Below are positions 8,221 to 27,110 of a stretch of 64,000 nt of DNA, piece after piece. The stretch spans positions 67,588-131,587 of the forward strand of contig CAKQSE010000002.1 of the NCBI GenBank assembly GCA_934272785.1, given 5' to 3'. Under the pieces are notes generated by a model that ran no database searches, was not told the origin of the DNA, and saw only the letters and a program-made list of their open reading frames with translations. Within the stretch, counting starts at the first letter, position 1; every line of letters begins with the position of its first letter. The DNA comes from an uncultured Alphaproteobacteria bacterium. Lineage in GTDB: Bacteria; Pseudomonadota; Alphaproteobacteria; Rs-D84. The translations under genes were made by a program, and so were the position numbers.

Positions 8221-8224
8221 TGCA

Positions 8225-9322: not shown

Positions 9323-9324
9323 TC

Positions 9325-11634: not shown

Positions 11635-11653
11635 CTGTCGCCCCAATGTATGG

Positions 11654-12295
11654 TTATTTAAGAACAACCTCTTGCACCATGAATTTAAAAAATCCCGCGG
11701 GGTCACCGCCCTCTTCCAAATAACGATGCAGACCGTATTCCTCAATACTGTCACGGATTCCTGGTTCATATCTAACCTTTAAGAAAACAGTTCCCGTGGT
11801 AACGACCGGCCCGGTTGCCAAATTGTTTGGTGTCTGCCACGTCCGCAATTCATAGTCGGCGCGCCAATAATCCCCATCGCCCGGACGTGTAATATCGCCC
11901 ACAACGGTTGCAGTGCGCATTATGCCCTTGGTCGCCATATTTTGAATTTCGGGTGCAACGTTTGCCTGCCAATCACGAAATACCGACTGTGATGATGTGC
12001 GGGCCAACATATTGTTTGATGTGCCACGTCCATCGGTATAATCACCACCAGGCAAAACGCCAAAATATTCGGCGACATATCGCGTAATCAGCATATCAAT
12101 CAAACGCGTATCGCCAATTTCAGACAACGTTTCCAATTCGCCGGGCCGCTCGGTTGACAGATTGTTCGGACGAAAGAAATACGTATCCACCGTGCGTTTT
12201 TCGCCGGCATCATATATCGCACCGGTCAAGAATATTGCGCCAAACACCAGCACAAGTAACAGCAATCCGGCAAAAAACATCAATATCTTTTTCAT
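11654..12295 (-). CDS. VirB8/DotI-like bitopic membrane protein (second copy)
   Basis: 213 aa with an N-terminal TM helix and a periplasmic domain carrying VirB8-like landmarks (LITRYVAEYF; C-terminal DPAGFFKF). Its start overlaps the upstream stop (TGATG). Confidence 0.4.
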   Translation of the reverse strand: MKKILMFFAGLLLLVLVFGAIFLTGAIYDAGEKRTVDTYFFRPNNLSTERPGELETLSEIGDTRLIDMLITRYVAEYFGVLPGGDYTDGRGTSNNMLARTSSQSVFRDWQANVAPEIQNMATKGIMRTATVVGDITRPGDGDYWRADYELRTWQTPNNLATGPVVTTGTVFLKVRYEPGIRDSIEEYGLHRYLEEGGDPAGFFKFMVQEVVLK

Positions 12296-12990
12296 CAGTT
12301 CAATCTGTATGCGTTAAAGTCCGTTATGTAATACCCCAACGTGCGCGGATACGATTTCGTGTCGCGTCCCACACGCATAAATGCGATTATCTGCATAGAT
12401 GGCGTCACGTTCCCAGAAATTGTTGCACGCACGCGCCACATACCGCCGTTATCACCAACCGCGCCGACGGGTTCAATCTGTAACGACGATGCGTCCAGAT
12501 TCAGGCGTCCCGACGCGGCGGCAATTTCCTGCCATGTGGGAACAACGTCATTTGTAAATCTGTTAAATACGGTGTCATTTGTCGCGCAATATATCGCGCA
12601 AACGCCATCGGCGCGCGCGGGCGCGTTTTCAGACATGCACACCTGGCCCCGGTCACACGTTTGCCACAGTGCCTGGTTTTCGGCATCATCGCCAACGGTG
12701 AACCAATCACGTGTGAAATTTGCGACAACCGATTCCTGCATCGTGCGTGATGCACTGTATTGCATTGTGCCGTGCGAATGCCCAACCACCGACCACGTGC
12801 CGGTCACACTGTCCACCGATATGATAAACGGGTCAACGGTCGCACTGCGCGATGTCCAAATCAACAGACCACACACGCATATGATTACAAAGAACAACGC
12901 CGACACCAAAATAGACACAGCGCGGGAAACGGCAATGCGCTTTCCCGCTGGGAATGCCGGTGTGTCAAAATTACTTGGATAGTCCAACAA
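12295..12990 (-). CDS. VirB8-like type IV secretion protein
   Basis: 231 aa with a TM helix followed by TVDPFIISVDSVTGTWSVV (compare VirB8 TVEPYVVRVDKSTGAV), ESVVANFTRDWF and a C-terminal TLGYYITDFNAYRL (compare NPLGFQVTQYR). Confidence 0.55.
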   Translation of the reverse strand: MLDYPSNFDTPAFPAGKRIAVSRAVSILVSALFFVIICVCGLLIWTSRSATVDPFIISVDSVTGTWSVVGHSHGTMQYSASRTMQESVVANFTRDWFTVGDDAENQALWQTCDRGQVCMSENAPARADGVCAIYCATNDTVFNRFTNDVVPTWQEIAAASGRLNLDASSLQIEPVGAVGDNGGMWRVRATISGNVTPSMQIIAFMRVGRDTKSYPRTLGYYITDFNAYRLN

Positions 12991-13020
12991 AATCCCCCCA
13001 CATGAATTTATTGGTGGATT

Positions 13021-13167
13021 TTACGCCTGGAACACCATGATACAGGCGCACGGACTCAGTTTCAATTCGTTGTTGTCATAACCGACACCGACCGGTTCGC
13101 GGTCATACACCTGGCCACAACCGGCCAATGCCAACGCAACAAAGAACGCCAGAAATACTTTCTTCAT
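13021..13167 (-). CDS. Small lipoprotein (VirB7-like by position and size)
   Basis: 48 aa, MKKVFLAFFVALALAGCGQVYDREPVGVGYDNNELKLSPCACIMVFQA, with lipobox LAGC and SD agagggga. It is absent from the ORF track because it is under 60 aa. Confidence 0.5.
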   Translation of the reverse strand: MKKVFLAFFVALALAGCGQVYDREPVGVGYDNNELKLSPCACIMVFQA

Positions 13168-13202
13168 GATTTTTCCCCTCTTTGCTTTCAATTCTTGGTC
13201 AA

Positions 13203-13908: not shown

Positions 13909-14239
13909 AGAGAGCAGAGTGTAGAGTGCAGAGAGCAATGTCGCGCGCCATTGGCGCGCTTGTTTTTACCATCGCGGTCTAAGTTCCCCTCTGGCCAGAG
14001 GGGTGGCACGAAGTGCCGGGGTGTCGTTTTTCCAGAGAGCAGAGTGCAGAGAGCAATGTTTTTATTCCGTCACCCCGACGAAGGTCGGGGGCCATTGCCC
14101 CACGGGGACAACCAAAAGACCACCCCGTCCTGGCGGACACCCCGACCCGGGCCCCGCGGAATTGTTAAATTCCGTGGGTGGTTCCAGGAGGGGAACTTAG
14201 TCCGCAACGGACACACCCCCATTGCTCTCTACTCTCTAT
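13909..14239. mobile_element. MITE-like modular repeat element with inverted termini
   Basis: The left end is AGAGAGCAGAGTGTAGAGTGCAGAGAGCAATG (13909-13940). An internal copy lies at 14034-14058 and an inverted copy, CATTGCTCTCTACTCTCTAT, at 14220-14239. Internal palindromic modules are shared with 45829-46394. Confidence 0.6.
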
Positions 14240-14265
14240 TTTCTGGCGCGGCGCGCCAGAAAAAT

Positions 14266-14526
14266 TTACTTTATCACTGCGGTTTTTATCAGGGATACAT
14301 CATCGCGAATCGTGTCCAGTTTTATCTGTAATTGCCCGATGCCTGTTTCCAGTATCGTCGTGCGATTTTCCAGTGTTGTGATACGCGTGTCGGCGCGCTG
14401 GATATCCGCCAGGGACGAATCCTGGCGCGCAACCCAATATACCAGGCCACCAATAAACGCGATTAAAAACCAACTGTCGCGCAGGGTCGCAATCAGGCCA
14501 CCCAAGGCACTTGTTTCCTGTTTCAT
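14266..14526 (-). CDS. Phage-cluster small membrane/coiled-coil protein
   Basis: 86 aa with one TM helix (SWFLIAFIGGLVYWV) followed by heptad-like repeats. It overlaps the upstream gene by 4 nt. Confidence 0.5.
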   Translation of the reverse strand: MKQETSALGGLIATLRDSWFLIAFIGGLVYWVARQDSSLADIQRADTRITTLENRTTILETGIGQLQIKLDTIRDDVSLIKTAVIK

Positions 14527-14717
14527 TTTCGCCCCCGTGATACCATATTTTCAATCATGTGCACCAACGCGCGCTGGGATTCCAGGCCGCGCAATTCGGC
14601 ATCCGACGCATTTGGCCCCAGCACACGTTCAATCGTCATCCGGCGCAGGTGTTGCAGCACCGCCGCACCCGACGCGGTTGAAAATGTGCGGGCATAGTTC
14701 TGGTCAATTTCGTTCAT
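14523..14717 (-). CDS. Small phage-associated protein
   Basis: 64 aa, immediately downstream of the portal gene in the same operon. Confidence 0.45.
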   Translation of the reverse strand: MNEIDQNYARTFSTASGAAVLQHLRRMTIERVLGPNASDAELRGLESQRALVHMIENMVSRGRK

Positions 14718-14732
14718 AATTTTTCCCTATGG

Positions 14733-15956
14733 TTAAATCAGGTTTTCCGCCACCGCCATTTGGGCAATGGGCGCAATGTATTTCAATTCTGCGTCACTGT
14801 TCAGCACAATCGGCGCAATCACACCGCGGCGCGATAAAATCTGTAATCCGCGGTCGGTCAGTGGCCGGATAAATTCGTGCAACAGCCGCCCGTATGTCGC
14901 GCCCAAAATCCGCATCATATCGGAATTGCGCGCCATAATTTCGGTCGCGGTCATTTCTTTTTCAGACAGCAATCCCAACCGATCGGCCAGCAATGCGTGG
15001 CGAATCCGCTCGCGCAGGTCTTTTAATATTATTTGCGACACATCAAAATCCGCACCCGATGACAACGGCGTCAGACCAGATGACCCGACGGCCTTGGGTA
15101 TAATTGCCCCCGGCGTCAGGTTTATGTTATTCAGGTTTATAACGCCATCATCGTCGGCCTGCCATATTCCGGACACTGCAATCGTTGCGTTTTTCAGCAC
15201 CAGTTCAACAACCTTGTTCGCGGTTTTGATGTCGGGCAATGCGCGCAAGACGGGACCGCGGCCGTATTGTTCACCGCTTAGAACACTCCACCGGAAAATG
15301 ATGTATGGATTGGTTTCAAATGTGCCACGCGCAACGATATTGTTTTGAATATTGCCGCCAGCATCCAACCACGCGGTGAATTCTGTGCCAACCAAACTCT
15401 GGACCAGGCGCAGTGGCGTTGCCGGGTCGCGTTTTATCTGGTCCCGGATTTCTGCCGGTGGCGTCCAGGTTGGGTATTTTTCCATAACATCACGCGCGGG
15501 CATTGTTGCCGTGTGAAATACCGCCCCCGGCAAAATCGCAATATCGCGCATTGGCACCGCCGTGAACGAAAACGCCGACGACGCACCGATTGGTGTTTCC
15601 GCCATAAACAGGCACGCCGTTCCCAAAATCACCAAGTCCAAATAGCATTGATGAATTGTGGTATAGAAATTAGAATCGTTCAGATTTGCGCGCAATGCCG
15701 CCGTCGCGGCGTCTGCATCGGGGGACGCATCGCTTTCCGGGACCAGGGATATCCACAGCGATTCCGGTGGCGTCATCAGTGAATATATTGACGCGGCCAG
15801 GTTATCCACCGCATCGGCCGCGGTTGCATCAAACAGTGTTGCCGCATCTGTATCGGTCGTCGGCATTGTGTATCGCATTGCGGCGTCCCAGCGTGCGACC
15901 CACGGCGCACGCGCATCCAATGCACGCCGATACATTTGTTCCAAATCATTTTGCAT
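14733..15956 (-). CDS. Phage portal (head-to-tail connector) protein
   Basis: 407 aa. The N-terminus LEQMYRRALDARAPWVARWDAAMRYTMP is typical of podovirus connector proteins. It sits next to the terminase. Confidence 0.65.
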   Translation of the reverse strand: MQNDLEQMYRRALDARAPWVARWDAAMRYTMPTTDTDAATLFDATAADAVDNLAASIYSLMTPPESLWISLVPESDASPDADAATAALRANLNDSNFYTTIHQCYLDLVILGTACLFMAETPIGASSAFSFTAVPMRDIAILPGAVFHTATMPARDVMEKYPTWTPPAEIRDQIKRDPATPLRLVQSLVGTEFTAWLDAGGNIQNNIVARGTFETNPYIIFRWSVLSGEQYGRGPVLRALPDIKTANKVVELVLKNATIAVSGIWQADDDGVINLNNINLTPGAIIPKAVGSSGLTPLSSGADFDVSQIILKDLRERIRHALLADRLGLLSEKEMTATEIMARNSDMMRILGATYGRLLHEFIRPLTDRGLQILSRRGVIAPIVLNSDAELKYIAPIAQMAVAENLI

Positions 15957-15984
15957 ATTTTCTCCTTTGTTTTGTTGTTATGCA

Positions 15985-16833
15985 TTAAACCTTGAAATTC
16001 GTATTTGCGGAATATATGGGGGCATGGTGTCCCATGGGGCGAATTGGTGTTGGCGCGGCGCATATTGCGCCCGCCACCGCGTCCAGTCCGTCGTCATGCC
16101 CCGCCCCACCAATTGGCGACCATCCCAACATTTCGGCAATAAATGGTGTTTGTGAACACGCGCGGTGCGCATACAATCGCCCAGCGGCCAGTGCCGGTTC
16201 AATTGCGTCTAAAATTCGGTCAACCTTTGGCCGGGTGTTTGTAATCCGCGTGATTGTGATTGGGGTGCCGGCACGTGTTGCCGCGTCGCGCATTATTTCT
16301 GGCAACGCATTTCCGATGCCATTTGTTTCAATCGTTATGCGACGCATATTGTGCACGCGCATAAAATTCAGCACCGCATCACACTGGTGCGCCAATGGGT
16401 GTGCATCATCGTCAGATGCCGTCATATATAAAATATCGTGAATAAACACGCACCGCGTTGTGTCATCACGATACAGCATAACGCACACACTGCCATCGCG
16501 GCCGCGACGCCCGGTTGATGGGTCCCAATACACCGCCGCGCCTGTGATTTTATGTTCGCCAATTTGGGCGGTGCGGCCATCAAACGCGTCATCATATAAA
16601 TGCAATGCCCCGGGATCCAGGCGCATACGTTCGGGCGCGACCGGTTCCAACATCATTTGCGCCGCAAAGTGCCGGGGGCCGACCGCGGACCGCAATTCGG
16701 CAATGCGCGGCGCGGGGAATAATTCGGGCCATGCGGACGCGCCAGCGTCATCAACCACCGGAATTTTCAGTGTTTTATATCCGTGCAAAAAAGGCGTTGA
16801 AAACGTAAATTTTTTGGATACTATATTGGACAT
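15985..16833 (-). CDS. Terminase large subunit, C-terminal nuclease half (split gene)
   Basis: AAVYWDPSTGRRGRDGSVCVML, ITIETNGIG and GHDDGLDAVAGAI match RNase-H-like TerL nuclease motifs. The ATG at 16833 shares the palindrome CATG with the dnaB ATG at 16832. Confidence 0.75.
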   Translation of the reverse strand: MSNIVSKKFTFSTPFLHGYKTLKIPVVDDAGASAWPELFPAPRIAELRSAVGPRHFAAQMMLEPVAPERMRLDPGALHLYDDAFDGRTAQIGEHKITGAAVYWDPSTGRRGRDGSVCVMLYRDDTTRCVFIHDILYMTASDDDAHPLAHQCDAVLNFMRVHNMRRITIETNGIGNALPEIMRDAATRAGTPITITRITNTRPKVDRILDAIEPALAAGRLYAHRACSQTPFIAEMLGWSPIGGAGHDDGLDAVAGAICAAPTPIRPMGHHAPIYSANTNFKV

Positions 16834-18400
16834 GGACTTTACTCCCAAAACTTTACCAACGAACCTAGAGGCCGAACAGGCCGTCCTGGCCGCGGTGTTG
16901 ATGAATAACCGCGCGTTGGAACGCATTTCTGAATTTTTAAAACCGGAACATTTTTCGCATCCCGCACACCAGGAAATTTACAAGTTGGCGGAACGCCAAT
17001 TTGCCGCGGGTATTCCGTTTGATATTATCACCGCGAAAAATTACCTGGACCAACAGGGCGTGTTGGAATCGGTTGGTGGCGTTGATTACCTGACCCAATT
17101 GGCGGGTGCCGGTGCGACGGTTGTAAATGTTGAACAATATGCGCGTATCGTTTATGAAAACGCCCTGCGACGCCAACTGATTGATTTGGGACAATCAATT
17201 ACCGACAACGCATTTGTCGAAGATTTGGACAACCCTGTCACCACCCAGATAGAGGTTGCCGAACAAAAATTATTCAACCTGGCATCGGCGGGCGAAACCC
17301 GGCGCGAGGTTACACCAATCGCAACCGCATTACAGGGCGCATTAAAAGAGGCCGAAATCGCATACAAGGCCGACGGCAAATTGTCGGGTCTGACCACGGG
17401 GCTGAACGCGCTGGATAAATCCATCAGCGGCCTGCACCACAGTGATTTGATTATTATCGCGGGTCGTCCGGCGATGGGTAAAACAACGCTGGCGATGAAC
17501 ATCGCATTTAACGCCGCAAACGCAATTTTATCGGGGCGTGCCAATGATCAATACAAGGGCGCAGTCGTATTTTTCAGTCTGGAAATGTCCCAGGAACAGC
17601 TGGCGACGCGTGTGCTGTCGTCCCAGTCCAAGATTCCGGCATCTGCCATGCGCGAAGGGTCATTTTCTGATGAAGAATTTTTAAAAATGTCCCAATATTC
17701 CCAGGCAATCAGTCGCGTGCCGCTGTATATCGATGACACGCCCGGCATGTCGGTGCCAATGATGCGCACCCGCGCACGCCGTCTGGCGCGCAAATCCGGC
17801 GGGATTGCATTGATTGTAATCGACTATCTGCAACTGATGACGTCACCGGGCGGGCGTAAAAACGACAACCGCGTCCAGGAAATTTCTGAAATCACCCGTG
17901 GACTGAAAATGCTGGCCAAGGAACTGGATGTGCCGGTTATCGCCCTGTCCCAGTTATCGCGCAGTGTTGAAAACCGCGATGACAAACGCCCCCAGTTGGC
18001 GGACTTGCGTGAATCAGGTTCTATTGAACAGGACGCGGACATTGTTATGTTCACATACCGCGAAGAATACTATCTGGACAATCGCGACCCGTCCCAGCGT
18101 ATTTCGGGCAACACCAATGACAAGATTCAGGAATCATACCAGCGTCGTCTGGAACGCGCCCGGGGCAAGGCCGACATCATCATCGGCAAGAACCGTCATG
18201 GCCGTCCGGAAACCGTTCGCACGGCGTTCTTTGGCGATTACAGTTTATTCGACAATCTGGACGAGGCCGACGCCCGCGGCGAAAATGACTTTAACCCAAC
18301 GCCGTCCGCACCCGCAATCACATCTGACCCGGATATGGATAACGCGGCCGCGTTTGAACAGATTGACGCATCGGCAATACCCGACGATATGGAATTGTAA
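16832..18400 (+). CDS. dnaB: Replicative DNA helicase DnaB
   Basis: 522 aa from the internal ATG. It has PTNLEAEQAVLAAVLMNN, Walker A GRPAMGKTT, VIDYLQLM and SQLSRSVENR. The 124 codons upstream in the ORF track are antisense to the TerL-C ORF. Confidence 0.9.
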   Translation: MDFTPKTLPTNLEAEQAVLAAVLMNNRALERISEFLKPEHFSHPAHQEIYKLAERQFAAGIPFDIITAKNYLDQQGVLESVGGVDYLTQLAGAGATVVNVEQYARIVYENALRRQLIDLGQSITDNAFVEDLDNPVTTQIEVAEQKLFNLASAGETRREVTPIATALQGALKEAEIAYKADGKLSGLTTGLNALDKSISGLHHSDLIIIAGRPAMGKTTLAMNIAFNAANAILSGRANDQYKGAVVFFSLEMSQEQLATRVLSSQSKIPASAMREGSFSDEEFLKMSQYSQAISRVPLYIDDTPGMSVPMMRTRARRLARKSGGIALIVIDYLQLMTSPGGRKNDNRVQEISEITRGLKMLAKELDVPVIALSQLSRSVENRDDKRPQLADLRESGSIEQDADIVMFTYREEYYLDNRDPSQRISGNTNDKIQESYQRRLERARGKADIIIGKNRHGRPETVRTAFFGDYSLFDNLDEADARGENDFNPTPSAPAITSDPDMDNAAAFEQIDASAIPDDMEL

Positions 18401-18473
18401 TTATTTTACTTGCGGCGCGTGCAAAAATTGACTAATATTTTGTCAAGAAATACCCAAGTGCAGGAGTTTTGCA

Positions 18474-19481
18474 ATGGCCCAAGAAGAAATCATTTTTCCA
18501 AATAATATTCGTAACATCCGCCTGGCCGCGGGGATGAAAATGACCGAACTGGCGCGCCAGTCGCATTTGTCACTGTCCGCCGTGTCCAAGATTGAAAAGG
18601 GTGTTCGCCGTCTGAACCAGAAACAGTTGCTGAACATCTGTAACATTTTGGGTTGCAAATTATCTGACATATTTATCAAGGAAGACGACGCCGTTGCCGA
18701 CCAGTGGCAGAGCGAGATTAAACGTCGTCTGACCGATAACGAAGACAGCGGCCTGAAAATATTCGGTTCGGGTCTGCGCAAGATTCGCCAGCAAACCGGC
18801 AAAACGATTGCCCAGGCGGCACACGACGCCGGCATGACACTGTCCGTCTATCACAAGATAGAGGTTGGCCAACGTGAAATCTATCAAAACGAAATCGAAC
18901 CACTGGCCCGGTCATTCGCGATGAGTGCACAAAGCTTGTTTGATAAAATCGCCACACTGTATAAATCGGGCGAATTGAACAAACAAATCAGCAAGGTCAA
19001 AGAGCGCGTAAAATCCGTTCTGATTCCAGACAATCCCGCATCGGGCATTGATATGCATGGGGGCCTGTATGGTGCCAAGTTGTATGACAGTGCGCGTAAA
19101 AAACTGGTCCCGGTATTTGGCACACCTGCCGGCAAATCAATTGCGTTCAAGAAATCTGATGAAACGATGATTGTTGCCCCAATGACACTGGAAGGACGCA
19201 GTGGCATTTACGCCGTCGTGCCGAATTCTAAACGTCTGGGCGGATTTATCCCGGAACATTCGTATGTATTTGCCGACGCGACCCAGGCACCCGCCGTTGG
19301 TGATTTGGCCGTGTGTATCGACACTGATTTCGGCACATTGGCATCTGATACCGTTGCCACCGCCCAAATCGTCAGTGTGCGCCAGGATTCCCGTGGCAAG
19401 GTTTATGGTCAGATTTCATCGCCTGATGAAAAAATCATCGGCCAGACCATGCACAAGGTTATTATGATTGTTATGGAATAA
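18474..19481 (+). CDS. Transcriptional regulator: two XRE-type HTH domains plus an S24/LexA-CI-like C-terminal domain
   Basis: 335 aa. HTH 1 is about residues 10-67 (IRNIRLAAGMKMTELA...) and HTH 2 about 93-157 (LRKIRQQTGKTIAQAA...). The C-terminus has VPVFGTPAGKSIAF and a beta-rich region like the CI/LexA cleavage domain. Confidence 0.6.
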   Translation: MAQEEIIFPNNIRNIRLAAGMKMTELARQSHLSLSAVSKIEKGVRRLNQKQLLNICNILGCKLSDIFIKEDDAVADQWQSEIKRRLTDNEDSGLKIFGSGLRKIRQQTGKTIAQAAHDAGMTLSVYHKIEVGQREIYQNEIEPLARSFAMSAQSLFDKIATLYKSGELNKQISKVKERVKSVLIPDNPASGIDMHGGLYGAKLYDSARKKLVPVFGTPAGKSIAFKKSDETMIVAPMTLEGRSGIYAVVPNSKRLGGFIPEHSYVFADATQAPAVGDLAVCIDTDFGTLASDTVATAQIVSVRQDSRGKVYGQISSPDEKIIGQTMHKVIMIVME

Positions 19482-19511
19482 CATCACCCACAGAAAACGG
19501 AGAGAGAACCC

Positions 19512-20192
19512 ATGAAAGCCAGAGCCAGCGCAATCGCACAAAAATTGTTAAACCTGTATCGCCAGGAACACGTCATCATTGGCGGCTGGGCGGCGGTCAA
19601 TCCCGTCTTTGTGGCCGAGGCCGATGACGAAGTCATACGCGAGTTGCGCGCCCTGCCGACCGGGAAGATGTTGATTCAGCATATTGAAAACCTGCGCAGT
19701 GGAAAAACACAAATGGACACCATTGATCGCGAATTGTTACCGTATGGCGGTCAAATGGCCGAAACAATTGTGACAATCCCACTGACCGCGGACGAGTGGC
19801 GCGAACTGGAATCCGGTATCGCCGCGTTTACACCCGACGAAAGTGGCCTGGCCCAGATCCAGCAATTGGATGTTGTCCGCAAATTTGGCGACGAGTGGCC
19901 GGTTGCAATTCATTCCGCCCTGGCACAAAAACCAGAACTGTTATCAAAATGGACCGTCATTACCAAAACGTATCGTGCATACTTCTTGTGGCACGTTGCA
20001 ACAGATATGCTGAACGAGCCGCTGTCGGAACGTGCACGTGCGCAATTACAGGCCGATATGCCCGAATACGAAACGTATCTGCCGATGTTTGGTGACGCGG
20101 GTGACGAATTGTTGCGCAAACTGCGCACGTTTATCAGCACACGCGATCCAATTGATACCGACAATGCGCCCGACGCGCCGACATCAATTTAG
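19512..20192 (+). CDS. Hypothetical protein (third gene of the dnaB cassette)
   Basis: 226 aa with no recognisable motif. Its stop overlaps the stop of TerL-N on the opposite strand. Confidence 0.5.
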   Translation: MKARASAIAQKLLNLYRQEHVIIGGWAAVNPVFVAEADDEVIRELRALPTGKMLIQHIENLRSGKTQMDTIDRELLPYGGQMAETIVTIPLTADEWRELESGIAAFTPDESGLAQIQQLDVVRKFGDEWPVAIHSALAQKPELLSKWTVITKTYRAYFLWHVATDMLNEPLSERARAQLQADMPEYETYLPMFGDAGDELLRKLRTFISTRDPIDTDNAPDAPTSI

Positions 20193-20818
20193 TCGTCATC
20201 GCTGGTGCGATAAATCGTATCGACCGTATGTGGCGTGCCGATATAAATCATTGTGCCACCTGGGGACAAGATAAAATCCAATTCCCGTAATCGTTCACGT
20301 AACTTTTCACGCTTGTCGGGGGTGTTGCTGGTATTTGGAACCTCGACATCATCACAGATTATTAAATCTGCACGTGCGCCTGTTATGTTACCGGCAACAC
20401 CGGCACAGATGACCGATGGCTCGCGTATGCCAATTGGCCGATTTACTGTTATTCGATCACTGGCCCACGTTCGCCGTCCGGTTGGAATCATATCGCTGCA
20501 CCGTGGATGATTTTCCAATATGTTACGAATATGCCCAACCATACGTGACGACAGTGTGGTTTCTGCGGATAAAATCAGAATACGCGATTCTGGGCGCATG
20601 CACAGCACGCACGCTGCGAAAATCCCCACAACGGTTGATTTACCCGAATGCCGAAACGCCATCAACAATCCCCGATTTGGTGACGTTGTCCAAGTGTCCA
20701 CCAAGAATTCCATTATTCGCCGATGATGTGCGGGCGTTTTCATCCCCAACAGTGCGTTCCACTGGTCCATAAAATCACAGAACGCCATAGTCATCGCGGT
20801 TTTCATTTGGCGCGACAT
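20189..20818 (-). CDS. Terminase large subunit, N-terminal ATPase half (split gene)
   Basis: 209 aa with Walker A AFRHSGKST, Walker B LIICDDVE and coupling motif IGTPH. It ends 16 residues after GTPH. Confidence 0.8.
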   Translation of the reverse strand: MSRQMKTAMTMAFCDFMDQWNALLGMKTPAHHRRIMEFLVDTWTTSPNRGLLMAFRHSGKSTVVGIFAACVLCMRPESRILILSAETTLSSRMVGHIRNILENHPRCSDMIPTGRRTWASDRITVNRPIGIREPSVICAGVAGNITGARADLIICDDVEVPNTSNTPDKREKLRERLRELDFILSPGGTMIYIGTPHTVDTIYRTSDDD

Positions 20819-21329
20819 CGGTAATCATCCCATAATCATTGACCAGTTTTGGCAATGCCCCATCCAGCACCGACAGCAGATTTTGATACAGTCCCAAAAC
20901 CGCCCCGCCCGACAATTTGTCTTGAATCACCGCCAGATTGTAATTCAAGAAATTCATCACATTATCGTGGGTATTTTTCCACTGGGCCAGGTCAATATTC
21001 ACCCCATCCAGGTCACGAAACGCCGCCAGTAAAAAATTAAAGTCCGCGTTCAGTGATTCTGGGTCAATTTTCATCGTCGGCTGGTAATCAATCACACGGT
21101 TCAGCGCGATGCGCCGAAATATGTCAATCGTTGCGTCCGCCGTGGGTGGCACTTGAAATACAACGTTGCCGCCGGTGAAATCATCGTTTGGCACGACCGA
21201 ATATATTCCCGCGTCCGGCTCCGCGACCGCGTCATCAATTGCGACATGCACGTCGGCATTTTGAAAGAACGGAAATACAAATTGGTATTCGGTCGTAACG
21301 CCGTCGGCGACATATGATATTTTATACAT
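20775..21329 (-). CDS. Tail-fibre N-terminal (tail-attachment adaptor) domain protein
   Basis: 184 aa. YVADGVTTEYQFVFPFFQNADVHVAID matches the T7-type fibre N-terminal pattern. There is no distal receptor-binding part. Confidence 0.55.
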   Translation of the reverse strand: MYKISYVADGVTTEYQFVFPFFQNADVHVAIDDAVAEPDAGIYSVVPNDDFTGGNVVFQVPPTADATIDIFRRIALNRVIDYQPTMKIDPESLNADFNFLLAAFRDLDGVNIDLAQWKNTHDNVMNFLNYNLAVIQDKLSGGAVLGLYQNLLSVLDGALPKLVNDYGMITDVAPNENRDDYGVL

Positions 21330-21340
21330 ATCCGCCCCCT

Positions 21341-21688
21341 TTAAGCGACCAAATCATCAAATCGGTCCATCAATTTTTTCAACAGATTTGGTTTTGTCGT
21401 CTTGACCTGGCGCAGTTTTTCCAACGACGCGCGACGCTTTTCATCATATGGCGCGGCCGTTTCAGATTGCAGGCGTCGCAACACGGCATCTTCGGTCATG
21501 CCACGATTTGACATCCCCGATGCGCCGTATTTTGCACGCTGGGCCGCCAGGGCCTTTTTCACCAGGTTTGTTTTTGTCTTTTCATCGGCCGCCATATCCG
21601 CCAGTATTTTCTTGCGGGCGGTGCTGGCCTCGCTCTTGCTTTTTTTATAGTCCAAAACTTCTTGGACATCAGAAACCAATTGTCCCAT
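21341..21688 (-). CDS. Basic phage-cluster protein of unknown role
   Basis: 115 aa, Lys/Ala-rich and predicted helical, between tubular protein B and the fibre adaptor. Confidence 0.45.
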   Translation of the reverse strand: MGQLVSDVQEVLDYKKSKSEASTARKKILADMAADEKTKTNLVKKALAAQRAKYGASGMSNRGMTEDAVLRRLQSETAAPYDEKRRASLEKLRQVKTTKPNLLKKLMDRFDDLVA

Positions 21689-21711
21689 TTTTCACTCCCT
21701 TGGTTATTTTG

Positions 21712-23427
21712 TTAAACGGTGTAATATCCATACATTGTGACCGACAATACGGTGATTTTTTCTGCGTCACTTGACGAAATTCGCCACGGGGACGCGGTGC
21801 AATCCTGCATCCATCCCAACGCGCCAACCGACACATCACCCGTAAATCCCGAATGCGTCGCGGCATATATTTCATCGGGCAACACGCATCGCATATCATT
21901 TATCAGGATTGATTTTGTGTCACAAACACGCGCGGCGATTTTACGAATGCGCGCACGTGCGGCGTTATGCCCACTGCCCCGCAGGGGAACGCCCGCGGCC
22001 GCGATACTGAAATTATATGCCGGCGCATCACACAGTGCGTCGTGCGAAAAATATTCCAAGAAATATTTATCATCGCGCGCAACGACAACGAACGTTTTGC
22101 CCGCCGATACCGCAACTGATTTAAATTCGCCGTTTGTTTTATACTGGACCCACGCCGAAATTCCCAACGCCGTATTCTGGTTCAGCACCGCCATATCGCC
22201 CGACGCCATAACGACAAACAATCGCCGTTCGGCACTGTTATACGCAATGTCAACCGGCGTCTGCATCAGGTGTTTCGCATACGCGCACAGGTCGGTTGCA
22301 TTATAATTTTCACCCAATTCATCCAGTGACAGTTCCCGAATATCACGCATAGACGCGGCGACAAATACGGTTGCGCCCTCTATCTTTTGCGGGGGCATAT
22401 ATCGTGACGATGCGCTGCCGACCGATGTGTGCTGCTTTATATCAACCGATGACGGGGTCAGTGGTTTATTCGCAATTGCCCATTCGCCCACCGTCGTCAG
22501 GATTTGCAGATTATCCGCACTGACAACCGTGCAAATCTGTTGCCGCTGGGCCGACAGCAATGTGATAAATATCGCCTGGTCGTCCAAACCGGTGCCAACG
22601 TCAAAGTTATTGTGCCGCCCGACCTGGGACATCCATACGCCCGCCGGATAGTCACGCGCACCACCGAACACCAATCGGTCCTGGTGAAATGTGATGCTGA
22701 CCGGCCAACCACGACGCGTGCTGAATGCGGCCTGACGCCAATCGGTAACGGCGGCGGCGGGTAACGTAAATGTTCCGTTTGTATGCGCCGTGGCAACGGT
22801 TGGTCCCGTGACAGATGTGATTGTCCACTGGCGGTCCAGGACCATAAACCGACCGCCCACATCATCAGACGTCCAAAAATCGCGATTGGTCGTAAATGTG
22901 GCATAGTTATTGCCCGCGCTGTTTGCCGTGACGGTTATTTCAATGCCATCGGTATCGTCAAATCGCACAAATGGAATATTGACCGATAAATCAGAATCAT
23001 TGCGCGAAAAATCAAACAGCGACAGTGTAAATCCATCTGGCGTGCTCTGGAACACGCGCGGCTGAAAATCCGGATGAACAAAAATCATCGTGCCGAAACG
23101 CTGGGCGTATTGCAGTGATTTTATCGCGTCTGCCGGCCACGGCGCGGCGATGTCCTGGATTTGTTCGTCGTCCGAAAATACCAATATATGTCCATCGGTA
23201 ATGGCCAACATGTATTCCGCGTCCGCACCCACCGAAAACGGCACCAGGCGCGCCGCATTTGGCAATACGGCACCCGCACACAATCCTGCACGACGCGTTA
23301 TTCCGCCACCCGACATTACGTCCATATTTAACAATTGCGACAATCCATTTAAATTATCGTGCGTATAAAATTCGCGGGAAATTTCCCCATCTGCAAAAGA
23401 ATTCTGGGTATTTATAAAATTTGCCAT
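21712..23427 (-). CDS. Tail tubular protein B-like (nozzle)
   Basis: 571 aa. The N-terminus ANFINTQNSFADGEISREF...GGGITRRAGL and its position after the tubular protein A-like gene support the call. Confidence 0.5.
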   Translation of the reverse strand: MANFINTQNSFADGEISREFYTHDNLNGLSQLLNMDVMSGGGITRRAGLCAGAVLPNAARLVPFSVGADAEYMLAITDGHILVFSDDEQIQDIAAPWPADAIKSLQYAQRFGTMIFVHPDFQPRVFQSTPDGFTLSLFDFSRNDSDLSVNIPFVRFDDTDGIEITVTANSAGNNYATFTTNRDFWTSDDVGGRFMVLDRQWTITSVTGPTVATAHTNGTFTLPAAAVTDWRQAAFSTRRGWPVSITFHQDRLVFGGARDYPAGVWMSQVGRHNNFDVGTGLDDQAIFITLLSAQRQQICTVVSADNLQILTTVGEWAIANKPLTPSSVDIKQHTSVGSASSRYMPPQKIEGATVFVAASMRDIRELSLDELGENYNATDLCAYAKHLMQTPVDIAYNSAERRLFVVMASGDMAVLNQNTALGISAWVQYKTNGEFKSVAVSAGKTFVVVARDDKYFLEYFSHDALCDAPAYNFSIAAAGVPLRGSGHNAARARIRKIAARVCDTKSILINDMRCVLPDEIYAATHSGFTGDVSVGALGWMQDCTASPWRISSSDAEKITVLSVTMYGYYTV

Positions 23428-23445
23428 TATATCCCCCGTAATTCG

Positions 23446-23964
23446 TTAAAATCGTGAATTTATCAGTGAAAAGTTTTCGATATTTGATGGCGATGATGTT
23501 GTGCCATCAATGAATTTTGCCGTCTGTAATTCTGATTCATACAGCGCGGCCAGCATTCTGAATATCGTTTGATCCCCGGTCAGCGGGACGCAAAATTCCA
23601 TCGCCAGTTTTGTCGCCGCCACCGACACAAAGTATCCCGGAAATGCGTCCGGCGCAACACGCGCCAGGCCGATTACCGAAATCGTATCGGTCGGTGCAAT
23701 GATTTTATTGCCAACAATATTGCCGACGGATTTCACCACGCGCAGGCATTCGGCCGGCAACACAAAATCGCCATCGGTGTTCTTGGTCAAATCAAATCGA
23801 CGACATGCAAATCGCCACGGGTGCAGCGCAATCAATGCGTCCATCACCGGGTCAAATAATGTTCGGGCCAGTTGCGCCGCCGGCGTGTCATCTAACAACG
23901 ATTGTATCGGTTTTTCGCCCAGTTTCAGCAACGCCATTGAACATAAATCTATCTTGGTCAACAT
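23446..23964 (-). CDS. Tail tubular protein A-like (adaptor)
   Basis: 172 aa from the internal ATG. MLTKIDLCSMALLKLGEKPIQSLLDDTPAAQLARTLFDPVMDALIALHPWRFA fits the gp11-like pattern. Confidence 0.55.
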   Translation of the reverse strand: MLTKIDLCSMALLKLGEKPIQSLLDDTPAAQLARTLFDPVMDALIALHPWRFACRRFDLTKNTDGDFVLPAECLRVVKSVGNIVGNKIIAPTDTISVIGLARVAPDAFPGYFVSVAATKLAMEFCVPLTGDQTIFRMLAALYESELQTAKFIDGTTSSPSNIENFSLINSRF

Positions 23965-24048
23965 TTTCGTTTTCCCCCATTGGTTGATACAAAAAACCGG
24001 GGGCGGCACGCGCCACCCCCAAACAAAAATCAGTTATGATTTTATTTT

Positions 24049-24279
24049 TTATCCCAACGCCGCCGTTGTAACGGTCCCAGATGTAACAGTTATCGCCTTG
24101 ATTGACGTTTTATCTGACGCATTGATGATAACAATGTCGCCCGTGTTCATCAGTGTGTTCACGGCGTTAAAATAACCACTGGCGGTGATTGTTGCCAATG
24201 TAACATTTTCTGCATAGTGCCACAGTGTGAACCCGTTTGCATATGCAATCACAGACAAATTTTTATTCTGAAATGCCAT
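24049..24279 (-). CDS. Small phage-cluster protein
   Basis: 76 aa, directly downstream of the capsid gene. Confidence 0.45.
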   Translation of the reverse strand: MAFQNKNLSVIAYANGFTLWHYAENVTLATITASGYFNAVNTLMNTGDIVIINASDKTSIKAITVTSGTVTTAALG

Positions 24280-24301
24280 CTATTTTTCCTTTGGTTATTT
24301 T

Positions 24302-25135
24302 TTATTGTGCGTCGTTGTCTTTGCATTTGATACGAACGATACCGTCGCCATCAATCAGGACCGCGCCCTGGGACATGCTGTTGCTGATAAAGTGCGCGGC
24401 ACGTTCGCCATGCCATGAAATATCCGTTTTAACTTCCTGGCCGCATGCGTGACCAATGCTGGCCGCGTGATAGATAAAGCAATCACGTTTTGTTGTGTCT
24501 GACAACGGCAACGCGTTATACAGCACCCACGTAATGCCCAACCATTTCTTGGATGCGCCCCCAGAAATCAACGGCAAATCATTATTGCCAACGTAATCCG
24601 CCGAAACGAATTCTGTGATTTTCAGCAATTCGTTCCACTGGTGCACACCAACAACGGCAAAGCGGCGACCATCGTCTGGGATATCCTTGCTGTTCAGTGT
24701 TTCAACCGCTGACAAAATTAAATCCTTGCTCAGGCCCGCCGAATAATCACCAACCGACGCGGTTGCGCCCGACATGGCGTTCACAATCAGTTCATCGGTT
24801 TTGCGACCCAACGCATATGCGCCGGCACTGGCCACGACGCGACGTTCATCAATATTGGTCTTTAATTCGTCCAATGCGTCGACCCAATCGCCGGCATAGT
24901 AATCCTGTAACACGCATTCAACCGGTTCATGATTCAGGTTCATAACCGGCACAATGCCATGACGCGATTTTGTTGCGGCGGTGCCACGTCCAACCTTTTG
25001 AAATGTTGTTGATGCACCGACGACGCCTGATTTGCTGCGCACGGTTCCGCGCAGCTTTGTGCCCATTTGCTGGTATGCCAAATGAACATCTGCCTCGAAT
25101 TGTTTTACAAATACTTGGTCTATGGAAACAGACAT
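24302..25135 (-). CDS. Major capsid protein
   Basis: 277 aa from the internal ATG, with SD aaggga. FVKQFEADVHLAYQQMGTKLRGTVR...GRKTDELIVNAM is typical of HK97-fold podovirus coat proteins. It follows the scaffold gene. Confidence 0.65.
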   Translation of the reverse strand: MSVSIDQVFVKQFEADVHLAYQQMGTKLRGTVRSKSGVVGASTTFQKVGRGTAATKSRHGIVPVMNLNHEPVECVLQDYYAGDWVDALDELKTNIDERRVVASAGAYALGRKTDELIVNAMSGATASVGDYSAGLSKDLILSAVETLNSKDIPDDGRRFAVVGVHQWNELLKITEFVSADYVGNNDLPLISGGASKKWLGITWVLYNALPLSDTTKRDCFIYHAASIGHACGQEVKTDISWHGERAAHFISNSMSQGAVLIDGDGIVRIKCKDNDAQ

Positions 25136-25324
25136 ATTTTTTCCCTTGGTTAAATTATGTAAATTGTGACGCAATAAATTGCGCCAATAAAATTTCATCA
25201 CACGGTTATGCGCATATGCACGCCGCGACGAAACAAACACATCGGGTTCCAAACACAGATTCAGAATTATCCGTAAAAAAAATTTCAGTCGCACCGATAT
25301 GATACGACTGATACTTTCTTCAAG

Positions 25325-25348: not shown

Positions 25349-25354
25349 AAAATA

Positions 25355-25726
25355 TTATTTTTTCTTGGCTGGTGCTTTTTTCGCAACTGGCTTTTTGGCC
25401 GGTGCTTTTTTCGCAACAACTTTTTTCGCTGCTGGTTTTTTAACCGCAACTTTTTTTGCAACAGGCTTTTTCGCAGCAACTTTTTTCGCCGCTGGTTTTG
25501 CTGCTACTTTCTTGGCAACTGGCTTTTTGGCCGGTGCTTTTTTCGCAACAACTTTCTTGGCTGCTGGTTTCGCTGCTGGCTTTTTAACCGCAACTTTTTT
25601 TGCCGCTGGTTTCGCAGCAACTTTCTTTGCAGCAGGTTTTGCCGCTACTTTTTTCACTGCTGGTTTCGCAGCCGGTTTTTTAGCAGCAACTTTCTTCGCC
25701 GCTGGTTTCAAGAATGTGAATGCCAT
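25355..25726 (-). CDS. Lys/Ala/Pro-rich histone-H1-like basic repeat protein
   Basis: 123 aa made almost entirely of (K)KPAAK/KKVAAK repeats. Strong SD aaggaga 7 nt upstream. It is on the same strand as its neighbours. The plus-strand ORFs here are Phe/Ala-rich mirror artefacts. Confidence 0.6.
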
Positions 25727-25831: not shown

Positions 25832-26488
25832 TTATGAATATAATTTTTTAAATCCATTTTCAATTTTTCGAACGTATTCACTGTCGTGATCACGCCAATA
25901 TTTTGGATCACGCATCATGCGTCGCAAATCATTATCAGATAAATTTACATCATCACCATCGGCGGTTTGAACGTGTGGTTCCATTGATTGCATCATCCTG
26001 TATATGCCTTGGATTCCCTGGGGTGTGGCGCATAACGCATCAAATGCATCGCGTGGTAAAAATTGCGTTCCAAATGCATTTATTTGTTTTATTGCATCGT
26101 TCATTTTTTCATCACTGCCAAAGAAATTTTTTAATTCAGAAATTGCCGCAGCCTGGGATTGTGTTGCAAACAAATCAGATATTACTGGTGATAAAAATTC
26201 TTGGGCGATGTTATAAATTTGCGAAACCTGTGATGACGTCAATCCAATTTCAAAAAATTTTGCGCGCAAATTTTCATCATCAAACAAATCATTTTTTGGA
26301 TAATTATCCGGTGCGTCTGGCACGCCAATCGCGCGTCTGAAACGATTACGCGTATCATCGTCGGCATCATCAGACGGCACCGATATCATCGTTCCGATTT
26401 TCTTTTCCAATGCCGCATATGATTTTATCAATGCATCTGTGTTTAATGTTCCGTCTTGGTTTTTAAATTTTTCAGGAATCTTTTCCAT
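25832..26488 (-). CDS. Capsid scaffolding protein
   Basis: 218 aa. The N-terminus IPEKFKNQDGTLNTDALIKSYAALEKKIG is typical of podovirus scaffolding proteins. It is acidic and helical. Confidence 0.6.
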   Translation of the reverse strand: MEKIPEKFKNQDGTLNTDALIKSYAALEKKIGTMISVPSDDADDDTRNRFRRAIGVPDAPDNYPKNDLFDDENLRAKFFEIGLTSSQVSQIYNIAQEFLSPVISDLFATQSQAAAISELKNFFGSDEKMNDAIKQINAFGTQFLPRDAFDALCATPQGIQGIYRMMQSMEPHVQTADGDDVNLSDNDLRRMMRDPKYWRDHDSEYVRKIENGFKKLYS

Positions 26489-26700
26489 TTTTTATTTCCT
26501 TTGTTTTGATTGTTTGATTTGCGAATAAAATAAATTCCACACAATGTGAACAGTGCCTGGCATAAAACAAAAATATCACTGTCACCGACCAAATACGCCG
26601 CCACCGCCGACAGCGCGCCAACGACCGACATAACGTGCGTGCGCCGGTCGGCCAACCATCCGCCACGAATAATTTTCTGGATACGCATTTTTATCACCAT
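26443..26700 (-). CDS. Holin-like membrane protein
   Basis: 85 aa with two hydrophobic segments and a highly basic C-terminal tail. Its start overlaps the endolysin stop (TAATG). Confidence 0.45.
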   Translation of the reverse strand: MVIKMRIQKIIRGGWLADRRTHVMSVVGALSAVAAYLVGDSDIFVLCQALFTLCGIYFIRKSNNQNKGNKKWKRFLKNLKTKTEH

Positions 26701-27110
26701 TATAAATAGAACAACATTCCATCAACGTCAGCGATATATCCGCGCGATGTTGACCAGGCGGGCATTTCATCAGCACGATGAAAACGCGTTGCACCAAACG
26801 ACACATCTGGTAAATTGCCGTGCAACATTCGCCGCACCACACGCAGGCACATTTGAAATCCGCGCACATCCGGCGCAACATTTAATAATTCGTGACGCGC
26901 ATCATTTTCGTTCAGCGATAAAAACACATCACAATCTGTTACAACAACGTCCGGCGTGACACCACGATAACGCGCCAGATTTGAAATCATTGATGTAAAT
27001 GCCTCGACCAGCAATAACGATGTTGCACCCGTTTCGGCATAAACCACGCGCGCAATTTTATACGCGACGCACTGTGACACATCTGGGTTTGTTATCAGTT
27101 CAAGTTGCAT
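26700..27110 (-). CDS. Endolysin, SleB-type cell wall hydrolase family
   Basis: 136 aa. ARVVYAETGATS...SFGATRFHRADEMPAW resembles the Hydrolase_2/SleB domain. It is the first gene of the cluster. Confidence 0.6.
   Translation of the reverse strand: MQLELITNPDVSQCVAYKIARVVYAETGATSLLLVEAFTSMISNLARYRGVTPDVVVTDCDVFLSLNENDARHELLNVAPDVRGFQMCLRVVRRMLHGNLPDVSFGATRFHRADEMPAWSTSRGYIADVDGMLFYL

Follow-up and report, generated by a model that had tools for sequence, protein, structure and literature searches.

How has the gene for a phage packaging motor come to lie in two pieces on either side of a bacterial replication operon, and do the pieces still make a motor? The question is raised by a 64,000-nucleotide stretch of DNA (the window; contig CAKQSE010000002.1 of assembly GCA_934272785.1, positions 67,588 to 131,587) from the chromosome of Candidatus Enterousia, a member of the alphaproteobacterial order Rs-D84 with genomes of <1 Mb (PMC12306168). 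In this window two minus-strand reading frames, which we call TerL-N and TerL-C, encode the two parts of a large terminase subunit (TerL) and are separated by 3.36 kb of plus-strand DNA (the cassette) that encodes the replicative helicase DnaB, a helix-turn-helix (HTH) regulator and a 226-amino-acid protein, u226. We consider it probable that the locus is a domesticated podovirus cluster resembling a gene transfer agent (GTA), in which a natural two-chain terminase surrounds a host dnaB operon. The genes and the candidate promoter at the split are as follows.

15985..16833, minus strand: TerL-C, 282 amino acids, with the last ATPase strand, the lid subdomain and the RNase H-like nuclease
16797..16824, plus strand: candidate dnaB promoter, TTGAAA-16-TACTAT, found by consensus scan inside TerL-C codons ~4-13
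16832..18400, plus strand: DnaB replicative helicase, predicted cellular (alphaproteobacterial) type, 522 amino acids
18474..19481, plus strand: regulator with two XRE-type HTH domains, 335 amino acids (HTH_3 in two stretches; HTH_19 at residues 100-158)
19512..20192, plus strand: u226, an all-alpha protein of 226 amino acids
20189..20818, minus strand: TerL-N, 209 amino acids, the Rossmann core of the terminase ATPase (Walker A, Walker B, motif III)

Two halves of one terminase gene

An earlier note on this DNA, made from the letters alone, had described two TerL halves flanking dnaB, a regulator and a 226-amino-acid reading frame on the opposite strand, and both the coordinates and the junctions were read in the sequence as it had given them. 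At the start-start junction, CATG at 16831-16834 holds the dnaB ATG (16832-16834, plus strand) together with the TerL-C ATG (16833-16831, minus strand), and at the stop-stop junction TTAG at 20189-20192 holds the u226 TAG and the TerL-N TAA. No single polypeptide carries both domains of a T7-type TerL: TerL-N stops after residue 209, and TerL-C begins at a separate ATG 3.36 kb away.

The two products match adjacent parts of the same profiles. On phrog_38 (760 positions) TerL-N covers 275-459 and TerL-C 468-708. On the NCBIfam model NF033889 (termin_lrg_T7; cut-off 150 bits) TerL-N scores 228.5 bits over model positions 2-191 and TerL-C alone 106 bits, under the cut-off, with its best stretch at 331-500, and both halves summed reach ~334 bits. 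TerL-C also carries the Pfam domains Terminase_6C and T7 RNaseH-like, and TerL-N residues 49-210 align with residues 53-217 of T7 gp19. When TerL-N and TerL-C were concatenated (491 amino acids), the product aligned to intact phage TerLs as one tblastn segment spanning residues 4-490 at 27% identity, and to intact alphaproteobacterial TerLs of 480-515 amino acids over 93-100% of length at 40-47% identity; identity of the two halves to known phage TerLs is ~24-31%. Because adjacent, non-overlapping matches to the same TerL profiles are joined by this one-piece alignment of the concatenate, we take TerL-N and TerL-C to be halves of one gene. Membership of different TerL families, overlap of the halves in alignment and loss of more than ~30 core residues at the junction were the outcomes that the earlier note had named as fatal to its claim, and none of these was found; its estimate that little or nothing is missing likewise held in the comparison with intact TerLs.

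The break lies inside the ATPase domain

The split had been described as falling at the domain boundary of TerL, which the alignment and the model lead us to revise. The break lies ~12 residues past motif III (IGTPH), within the ATPase domain, with the last strand and the lid helices going with the nuclease half. In an alignment of 65 sequences the position corresponds to a loop of variable length in intact TerLs ('...IGTPHTxxTIY' / 'PFLxGYxxLxIP...'), and no conserved residue is lost there. The AlphaFold2 model of an intact relative, P0010 (mean predicted local distance difference test score, pLDDT, 89), has the canonical TerL fold, with PhiV-1, T7, T4 gp17 and Sf6 as its top Foldseek matches. 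In that model the break loop is the coil 196-222, which links the motif-III strand to the strand after it, the TerL-C N-terminus maps to the loop at residues ~204-217, and the nuclease begins near residue 300. P74-26 ATPase-only constructs (~250 residues) align with it in Foldseek over ~270-280 columns.

On the far side of motif III, TerL-N ends in all related loci after GTPHxxDTIYRT and a short D/E-rich tail. This tail (20189-20230 in the window, compared with 70 related loci) is variable yet acidic, with 140 D/E against 12 K/R in 381 residues. On the other side of the break, the TerL-C frame is open upstream to 16926 in the window, and for 40-75 codons upstream in all loci. A 313-amino-acid TerL-C read from 16926 was considered and rejected: the added part runs antisense to the conserved N-terminus of dnaB and is without TerL homology, and database gene calls give 279-284 amino acids. 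A second unusual TerL-C, the 402-amino-acid P0003 (locus L089, 8228-9436), contains an exact internal duplication of ~120 residues and is probably an assembly artefact; the L089 locus itself is split normally.

One arrangement across a gut clade

A scan of one genome per species returned 583 relatives of TerL-N, of which the best 80 were taken for locus comparison. All 80 come from uncultured gut Alphaproteobacteria, many of them named Candidatus Enterousia, and every locus among them with enough flank has the order gp11, gp12, p115, (fibre stub), TerL-N, opposite-strand u226/HTH/DnaB, TerL-C, portal (the additional phage genes are set out below). A second scan with u226 as the query gave 267 genomes with the same layout. 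Of the non-redundant species-level loci in which a single contig holds all five genes, 116 of 116 have the canonical layout, with a separate TerL-N stop and TerL-C start, which is far beyond chance; the lowest identities to the window were 50% for TerL-C, 69% for TerL-N and 66% for DnaB. In 70 of 72 loci the two start codons overlap in CATG, as here, with TerL-C in frame, and 30 of these loci have 5-6 extra TerL-C codons. The 4-nucleotide stop overlap persists in 41 of 71 loci; the others range from an 84-nucleotide overlap to a 10-nucleotide gap; in several lineages the TerL-N tail reaches 25-84 nucleotides into u226 antisense. Two Enterousia-type loci, L134 (CAVGNU010000006.1) and L151 (CAZJGX010000005.1), stand in bins named Bacteroides fragilis and Muribaculaceae, probably through mis-binning.

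In a deep lineage, L185 (GCA_031263295.1, JAISGC010000015.1, 1-5529), terL is split as well, with DnaB 61% and u226 45% identical to those of the window. The gap between u226 and TerL-N in L185 holds two additional minus-strand genes, for an NfeD/S49-like protein of 302 amino acids and a 55-amino-acid reading frame, and a phage-lysozyme gene takes the place of the fibre stub. Since the same arrangement is found in all loci, L185 included, the split of terL appears to be a single old event in the common ancestor of the clade. No unsplit terL was located within Rs-D84; the closest intact TerLs in a collection of 5.8 billion proteins, searched within word-filter limits, are <=47% identical.

Pieces so consistently separate might nevertheless be re-joined, whether through an intron or a trans-splicing intein or through programmed excision or inversion of the cassette DNA, and precedents exist in the intron-restored split terL of jumbo gut phages (PMC12880540) and the splicing of herpesvirus UL15 (PMC3079670). 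We hold this to be very unlikely. An Rfam scan of 15800-21000 gave no family at E<=1, neither direct nor inverted repeats were found at the terminase junctions, and neither an endonuclease domain nor a recombinase was found in the insert. Together the halves are as long as intact relatives, with no spare residues for an intein; the stop and start codons at the junctions are conserved; and the insert holds an essential-type gene and differs in content in L185.

Selection on both halves

Ratios of non-synonymous to synonymous substitution (dN/dS) were estimated by the pairwise Nei-Gojobori method for pairs with dS 0.05-1.2 and were 0.074 for TerL-N, 0.126 for TerL-C, 0.050 for DnaB, 0.07 for the regulator and 0.05-0.34 across the phage genes, all of them rough values, as dS is near saturation for most pairs. 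The motifs FRHSGKST, ICDDVEVPN, IGTPH, WDPS, ETNG and HDDGLDA are invariant or at least 90% conserved (69-79 sequences), and 80 of the 209 positions of TerL-N are invariant (79 sequences); the least conserved parts of both halves are their junction-proximal tails. By these measures purifying selection on both halves appears as strong as that on essential genes, and the constraint is unlike that expected of pseudogenes. The proposal of the earlier note that this may be a genes-in-pieces terminase fits what was found, as the halves are intact, collinear and under purifying selection, with their catalytic motifs kept.

A putative dnaB promoter in terminase codons

With the two start codons sharing CATG, dnaB transcription had been predicted to start within terminase coding sequence, and the codons at the 5' end of TerL-C are consistent with that prediction. 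A sigma-70-like TTGAAA-16-TACTAT ends 7 nucleotides 5' of the dnaB ATG, and in the alignment of 72 junctions AAAAAAGGCGTTGAAAA...TTTTTT..ATACTAT is nearly invariant. The first ~25 codons of TerL-C have low synonymous diversity: normalised codon entropy averages 0.73 over the gene and falls to 0.13 at codons 2-13 and to 0.22 at codons 8-19. At codons 2-10 the amino acids vary, so that the low entropy there partly reflects relatedness of the sequences; the clean evidence of nucleotide constraint is given by the invariant FSTPFL codons (TTT TCA ACG CCT TTT TTG). A putative dnaB promoter would thus be embedded in TerL-C codons under dual coding and regulatory constraint. Because the promoter-like motif stands only 7 nucleotides from the ATG, the dnaB messenger RNA in the group of the window would be leaderless or nearly so, and in the 30 loci with 5-6 extra TerL-C codons these supply dnaB with an AAGGA Shine-Dalgarno sequence. 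At its own 5' end dnaB has an entropy of 0.70 and no extra nucleotide constraint.

For the transcription of TerL-C and the portal gene the candidates are an unrecognised promoter inside dnaB and read-through from TerL-N, antisense to the cassette. The second candidate can be extended to a regulatory interlock in which TerL-C, portal, Bbp19 and the 86-amino-acid gene are expressed only by read-through of the gp11-to-TerL-N operon antisense to u226-HTH-dnaB, which would tie particle production mechanically to shut-off of the helicase operon, and vice versa. The layout offers some encouragement for such an interlock: the convergent stops overlap without a terminator at TerL-N/u226, the divergent starts share CATG and leave no intergenic room, the dnaB 5' end lacks nucleotide constraint that would mark an antisense promoter, and the TerL-C frame is open upstream in all loci. 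We nonetheless judge it unlikely. It is purely inferential; weak antisense promoter-like matches do exist, at chance level; conserved genes often have an open antisense frame by chance; and the two additional genes in the L185 gap lengthen the read-through required.

The operon between the halves is of host type

DnaB scores 613 bits against NF006606 (cut-off 540) and 514 bits against TIGR00665 (cut-off 385), above the cut-offs of both cellular equivalogs, and 413 bits against the phage_DnaB model TIGR03600, below its cut-off of 499. Among phage DnaBs the best is 50% identical and comes from an unannotated 17-kb fecal contig; the others are at <=43%. By sequence the enzyme is assigned to the cellular (host) type. 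Grouping with phage helicases, which according to the earlier note would, together with a canonical dnaB elsewhere, undo its view of an essential gene embedded in a phage-derived locus, was not found; the view stands for an essential-type gene, a cellular equivalog kept where the phage genes are lost (see below).

The regulator had been called dual-HTH/S24-like. Its two HTH domains are confirmed, whereas the S24-like part is not: the C-terminal 146 amino acids have no Pfam match at E<=10, and a PDB sequence search matches the HTH region alone. For u226 no match was found in Pfam, PHROG, NCBIfam or PADLOC, nor in a PDB sequence search. Its AlphaFold2 model (pLDDT 80) consists entirely of helices and has no fold match in the PDB by Foldseek (best E 2.2); a profile search of 1.84 billion representatives gave 64 clusters, with a Pfam domain in 0 of 10 tested.

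In the outgroup loci L178, L180, L182/L183 and L184 the HTH-u226 pair stands in cellular contexts, without dnaB upstream and without a terminase nearby. The pair is therefore read as an old host gene pair and not as a mobile cassette, and a mobile insertion like mobE is not supported: neither an endonuclease nor repeats nor an intron were found. A reading of the cassette as a defence system was rejected, since PADLOC gave generic HTH matches alone.

A podovirus-derived block without replication or integration genes

The terminase halves and the cassette lie within a phage-derived block of ~12.8 kb (14266-27110), whose additional features are as follows.

14239-14263: terminator-like hairpin 3' of the 86-amino-acid gene (terminator scan)
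14266..14526, minus strand: small protein of 86 amino acids, last gene of the phage-derived block (median identity 71%, dN/dS 0.13)
14523..14717, minus strand: Bbp19-like small phage protein (PF25181 Phage_Bbp19, E 3.9e-12)
14733..15956, minus strand: portal (head-to-tail connector) of T7 type (PF12236, E 1.3e-83)
20775..21329, minus strand: tail-fibre N-terminal (tail-attachment) domain alone, 184 amino acids, the fibre stub (PHROG tail and tail-fibre N-terminal matches)
21341..21688, minus strand: p115, a Lys-rich protein of 115 amino acids (phmmer E 9.5e-7 to L087 6879-7430)
21712..23427, minus strand: gp12-like tail tubular protein B, nozzle (phrog_376, E 1.8e-79; dN/dS 0.098)
23446..23964, minus strand: gp11-like tail tubular protein A, adaptor (phrog_394, E 1.2e-31; PF17212 Tube)
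23997..24022, minus strand: strong terminator-like hairpin in the capsid/gp11 gap (11 pairs, 8 of them G-C, then a T run)
24302..25135, minus strand: major capsid protein (PF19821, E 7.9e-71; phrog_3437, E 3.5e-73)
25355..25726, minus strand: histone H1-like (Hc2-type) K/A-repeat protein of 123 amino acids (PF07382 HC2, E 1.3e-13)
25832..26488, minus strand: T7-type scaffolding (capsid assembly) protein (PF05396, E 6.7e-11; kept in 61 loci)
26700..27110, minus strand: cell-wall hydrolase-like protein, endolysin-derived, 136 amino acids, upstream end of the phage-derived block

On the minus strand the order is endolysin-like, scaffold, capsid, gp11, gp12, p115, fibre stub, TerL-N, [plus-strand cassette], TerL-C, portal, Bbp19 and the 86-amino-acid gene. 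The genes of phage origin in the block are scaffold, capsid, gp11, gp12, fibre stub, TerL, portal, Bbp19 and endolysin-like only; no integrase, replication module or lysogeny module was found in it. The portal is 72-99% identical across loci (dN/dS 0.056), and Bbp19 lies directly 3' of it, likewise in relatives with intact TerL. The 86-amino-acid protein gave weak matches alone in a PHROG search, and its gene adjoins Bbp19 in 65 of 80 loci. The fibre stub overlaps the TerL-N start by 44 nucleotides and corresponds to the N-terminus of the 409-675-amino-acid fibres of intact relatives, and p115, kept in 76 of 80 loci, is a homologue of the protein 3' of gp12 in those relatives. As a candidate small terminase p115 was rejected, because it matches that protein and not the 104-117-amino-acid protein 5' of intact TerL. 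The hydrolase-like protein is related to a Hydrolase_2 protein 3' of intact TerL in L087 (phmmer E 4e-9) and to the endolysins of phrog_938 (E 2.9e-5), with dN/dS 0.34. The likely start of gp11 is MLTKIDL at 23964 (mechanical reading frame to 24009; tblastn coverage begins at residues 12-16), and that of the capsid protein is MSVSID at 25135 (mechanical reading frame to 25336). The position of the hairpin at 23997-24022 presumably recalls that of T7 T-phi after gene 10.

The H1-like gene, nested in the scaffold/capsid gap, is still present in locus L139, which has no phage genes, and is probably a host gene. Its repeats are misread as hairpins by a simple terminator scan (25386-25676). In the intact relatives L087 and L187 the scaffold/capsid slot holds an opposite-strand PilZ gene, versus the H1-like gene here.

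The block diverges together with the host. Across 101 non-redundant loci, Spearman correlations of distances with those of DnaB were 0.69 for portal, 0.74 for TerL-C, 0.60 for TerL-N and 0.56 for gp12, compared with 0.52 for the host regulator, so that the phage genes co-vary with DnaB at least as well; a host flank of birA, o149, o110 and o193 recurs across loci. These data bear on the reading of the locus as an active temperate Enterousia phage that uses dnaB as its replication gene and one integration site, for which a strong match of DnaB to phrog_19 (phage DnaB-like helicases) and the listing of cluster fragments as viral in IMG/VR could be cited. We regard such a phage as extremely unlikely. 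It would lack integrase, replication and lysogeny modules, host birA and the H1-like gene are interleaved with the cluster, the cluster co-diverges with host genes, the helicase scores as cellular, HTH-u226 is a host pair in outgroups, and IMG/VR contains the cluster as 6-12 kb fragments only.

Joint loss of the phage genes in one lineage

Two loci, L139 (JAZLJO010000014.1) and L149 (horse-faeces MAG300), have lost every phage gene and keep dnaB-HTH-u226, the H1-like gene and birA-o149-o110-o193 in unchanged order; their DnaB+HTH proteins are 98% identical mutually. Upstream of their dnaB lies ordinary AT-rich DNA with TTGACT, a -10 element and an AAGGAG Shine-Dalgarno sequence. In a neighbour-joining tree of DnaB+HTH the pair is nested among cluster-bearing genomes on a long branch (0.105), at distances of 0.18-0.31 to other genomes, which differ among themselves by up to 0.34. 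With the pair nested in this way, parsimony points to secondary loss of the phage genes. These genes behave as a single functional unit that can be dispensed with, and the cassette as the part that cannot. Its retention here, and the small size (<1 Mb) of the genomes, give indirect support to the possibility that this dnaB is the only copy in the genome.

Loss of this kind also informs the proposal that the cassette disabled a prophage, whose terminase halves would then be decaying relics kept for the dnaB control signals that overlap them. The dnaB promoter motif does impose nucleotide-level constraint on the first ~25 TerL-C codons. Constraint as a whole, however, spans both halves over their full length and not the overlap alone, both reading frames and their arrangement persist in 116 of 116 loci, and after loss of the phage genes dnaB has an ordinary promoter and Shine-Dalgarno sequence, so that the overlap does not force retention. 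We therefore consider a decaying prophage highly improbable, and the earlier note's alternative of a prophage permanently disabled by the cassette gives way to a conserved, vertically inherited cluster of structural genes only.

Intact relatives of the cluster

The clusters with intact TerL in L087, L186 and L187 contain portal, Bbp19, scaffold, capsid, gp11, gp12, a protein of 143-183 amino acids and a fibre. In L087 and L187 they continue with a 104-109-amino-acid protein, TerL, a 106-amino-acid protein and an endolysin, and in L186 TerL lies 3' of the fibre and is followed directly by host genes. Compared with these, the Enterousia block has the portal module after TerL, the endolysin-like gene before scaffold and the N-terminus of the fibre alone, and is without a homologue of the small protein 5' of TerL. 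The intact TerLs of L087 and L187 are 59% identical, and the same T7-like cluster lies in both beside the same host genes, YggT, FolD and a Na+/H+ antiporter; these shared neighbours give a hint that unsplit versions of the element in other Alphaproteobacteria are also vertically inherited and GTA-like, and that domestication may have come before the split. L187 also has a weak GTA_holin_3TM match.

A model for the locus and the points against it

In the model that we favour, the block would descend from a T7/BPP-1-like podovirus and be maintained by the host as a GTA-like element. Its terL would have been broken once, in the ancestor of the clade, at a variable surface loop ~12 residues past motif III; TerL-N and TerL-C would be made as separate polypeptides from their own stop and start codons and would re-associate non-covalently into a working terminase; and dnaB would be transcribed from a promoter inside the first ~13 TerL-C codons. 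The block shares with viriforms and GTAs vertical inheritance, purifying selection and a lack of autonomous replication, integration or lysogeny genes, and in genomes of <1 Mb, where useless DNA is purged, we count the retention of the phage genes toward host maintenance. We are highly confident of the evolutionary and anatomical part of the model. Association of the two terminase chains is likely on the conservation described above, and for particle-mediated DNA packaging the arguments seem evenly balanced. From the genes we infer the binding of the halves, the production of particles, the packaging of host DNA and the route of TerL-C and portal transcription. What the earlier note had not seen is the identity of the organism, how old and how firmly fixed the split is, and that the cluster as a whole resembles a GTA.

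Several observations weigh against this model. The break comes directly after the motif that couples ATP hydrolysis to movement, which is awkward for a motor. No homologue of a small terminase (TerS) was found in the block, and no promoter for TerL-C and the portal is evident by consensus scan or codon entropy. The fibre stub is missing from ~40% of related loci, and with the fibre reduced or missing, it is doubtful whether recipient cells could be reached. At least one lineage (L139/L149) does without the cluster, and the near-saturation of dS loosens the estimates of constraint.

Some of the same observations would suit co-option of parts, in which the terminase pieces, and perhaps capsid and portal, serve host functions other than packaging and the halves need not interact: TerL-C might be a cellular nuclease, TerL-N an ATPase and the capsid protein a compartment. 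The lack of a detected TerS, the truncated or lost fibre, the position of the break just past the coupling motif and the moderate correlation between TerL-N and TerL-C distances (rho 0.47) can all be read in its favour. We find it quite improbable all the same, as the catalytic motifs of ATPase and nuclease are fully kept, constraint on portal, scaffold, capsid, gp11 and gp12 is similar or stronger, all phage genes vanish jointly in L139/L149 as for one machine, and the lid subdomain of TerL-C would be purposeless without the Rossmann core of TerL-N. Similarly improbable, in our estimate, is the most complete form of the domesticated-cluster model, in which podovirus-type gene-transfer particles are filled by a two-chain motor whose second chain and portal are made only via late-operon read-through antisense to dnaB, with helicase shut-off coupled to it.

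Other features of the window

The remaining window is ordinary chromosome, with genes for BamA, PriA, topoisomerase IV/gyrase subunit A, NrdD, LpxI and transfer RNAs, and there is no GC step across the phage-derived block. A low-GC island at 6778-10431 (0.34-0.38 versus ~0.50 elsewhere) carries family-2 glycosyltransferases and a DUF1796 protein and is probably a horizontally acquired surface-polysaccharide cluster. At 10846-13191 a VirB8-like protein is encoded beside small lipoprotein genes, and at 33982-34941 a T2SSE/VirB11-type ATPase; together these may be parts of an apparatus for type IV secretion or competence close to the phage-derived block. On the VirB8 side of the block, synteny varies among loci. 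The cumulative GC skew of the window drops steadily, and the minus strand carries most genes, those of the phage-derived block among them. As dnaB-HTH-u226 is among the few plus-strand units, it may be transcribed head-on to replication.

Relation to known systems

The closest architectural parallel, by analogy, is herpesvirus UL15, which has two exons with UL16/UL17 on the opposite strand in its intron, a layout conserved lineage-wide (PMC3079670). In both cases a terminase ATPase/nuclease gene lies in two same-strand blocks with several kb of opposite-strand genes between them. The UL15 exons are joined by spliceosomal splicing, whereas the Enterousia blocks have their own stop and start, no intron was found and the enclosed genes are cellular housekeeping genes. 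Fragmented terL genes are also described in Jug jumbo phages, in which terL is interrupted by an intron/intein and restored by group I intron splicing (PMC12880540), and in phiPDS1, with two adjacent terL coding sequences of uncertain status (PMC10773633). Those fragments are restored by RNA or protein splicing or are adjacent on one strand, whereas the Enterousia pieces are 3.36 kb apart with no splicing element. T7 gp19 and PhiV-1 TerL (PDB 4BIJ, 8DGC) share with the Enterousia halves the NF033889 family, Walker A, Walker B, motif III and an RNase H-like nuclease, and have as one polypeptide what is here two.

Among phage enzymes, the nrdA of Aeh1, split by mobE, and genes 39/60 of T4 are reportedly genes in pieces. 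They resemble our case in that a single-chain enzyme is encoded as two reading frames with no core residues lost and reassembly of the pieces is expected. They differ in that the Enterousia insert is a 3.36-kb opposite-strand host operon with no homing endonuclease, fixed in >100 host species versus one phage. The analogy drawn by the earlier note thus holds for the outcome and not for the cause.

With GTAs, both the RcGTA-type viriforms of Alphaproteobacteria and FpGTA of Faecalibacterium, the block shares a chromosomal, vertically inherited head/tail/packaging cluster under purifying selection, without replication and integration genes and with an adjoining endolysin-like gene. Known alphaproteobacterial GTAs are siphovirus-derived: the RcGTA type comes from an HK97-like siphovirus, whereas the Enterousia block comes from a T7/BPP-1-like podovirus. 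The block further differs from GTAs in having no detected TerS, a vestigial fibre, nested host genes and TerL in two pieces, and in being known from its genes only. FpGTA, from a member of the Firmicutes and reported in January 2026, was presented as the first GTA from the gut and the first of podovirus-like type (PMC12946183). No description of the present cluster in Enterousia or Rs-D84 was found in the literature.

The locus would then be a GTA-like element of podovirus origin that has not been described before, fixed in a clade of gut Alphaproteobacteria that is abundant and uncultured and whose genomes are so small (<1 Mb) that the keeping of ~9 kb of phage genes needs explanation. Such loci are liable to mis-annotation as broken prophages or viral contigs, and IMG/VR already lists fragments as viral. 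An essential-type cellular operon nested head-to-head in a phage-derived gene would be a bacterial parallel to UL15 without splicing. The split also offers a natural experiment on packaging motors, in which the Rossmann core has been parted from lid and nuclease and both chains have been preserved over a deep radiation; the two-chain motor, if true, would be the first terminase known to work when cut after the coupling motif.

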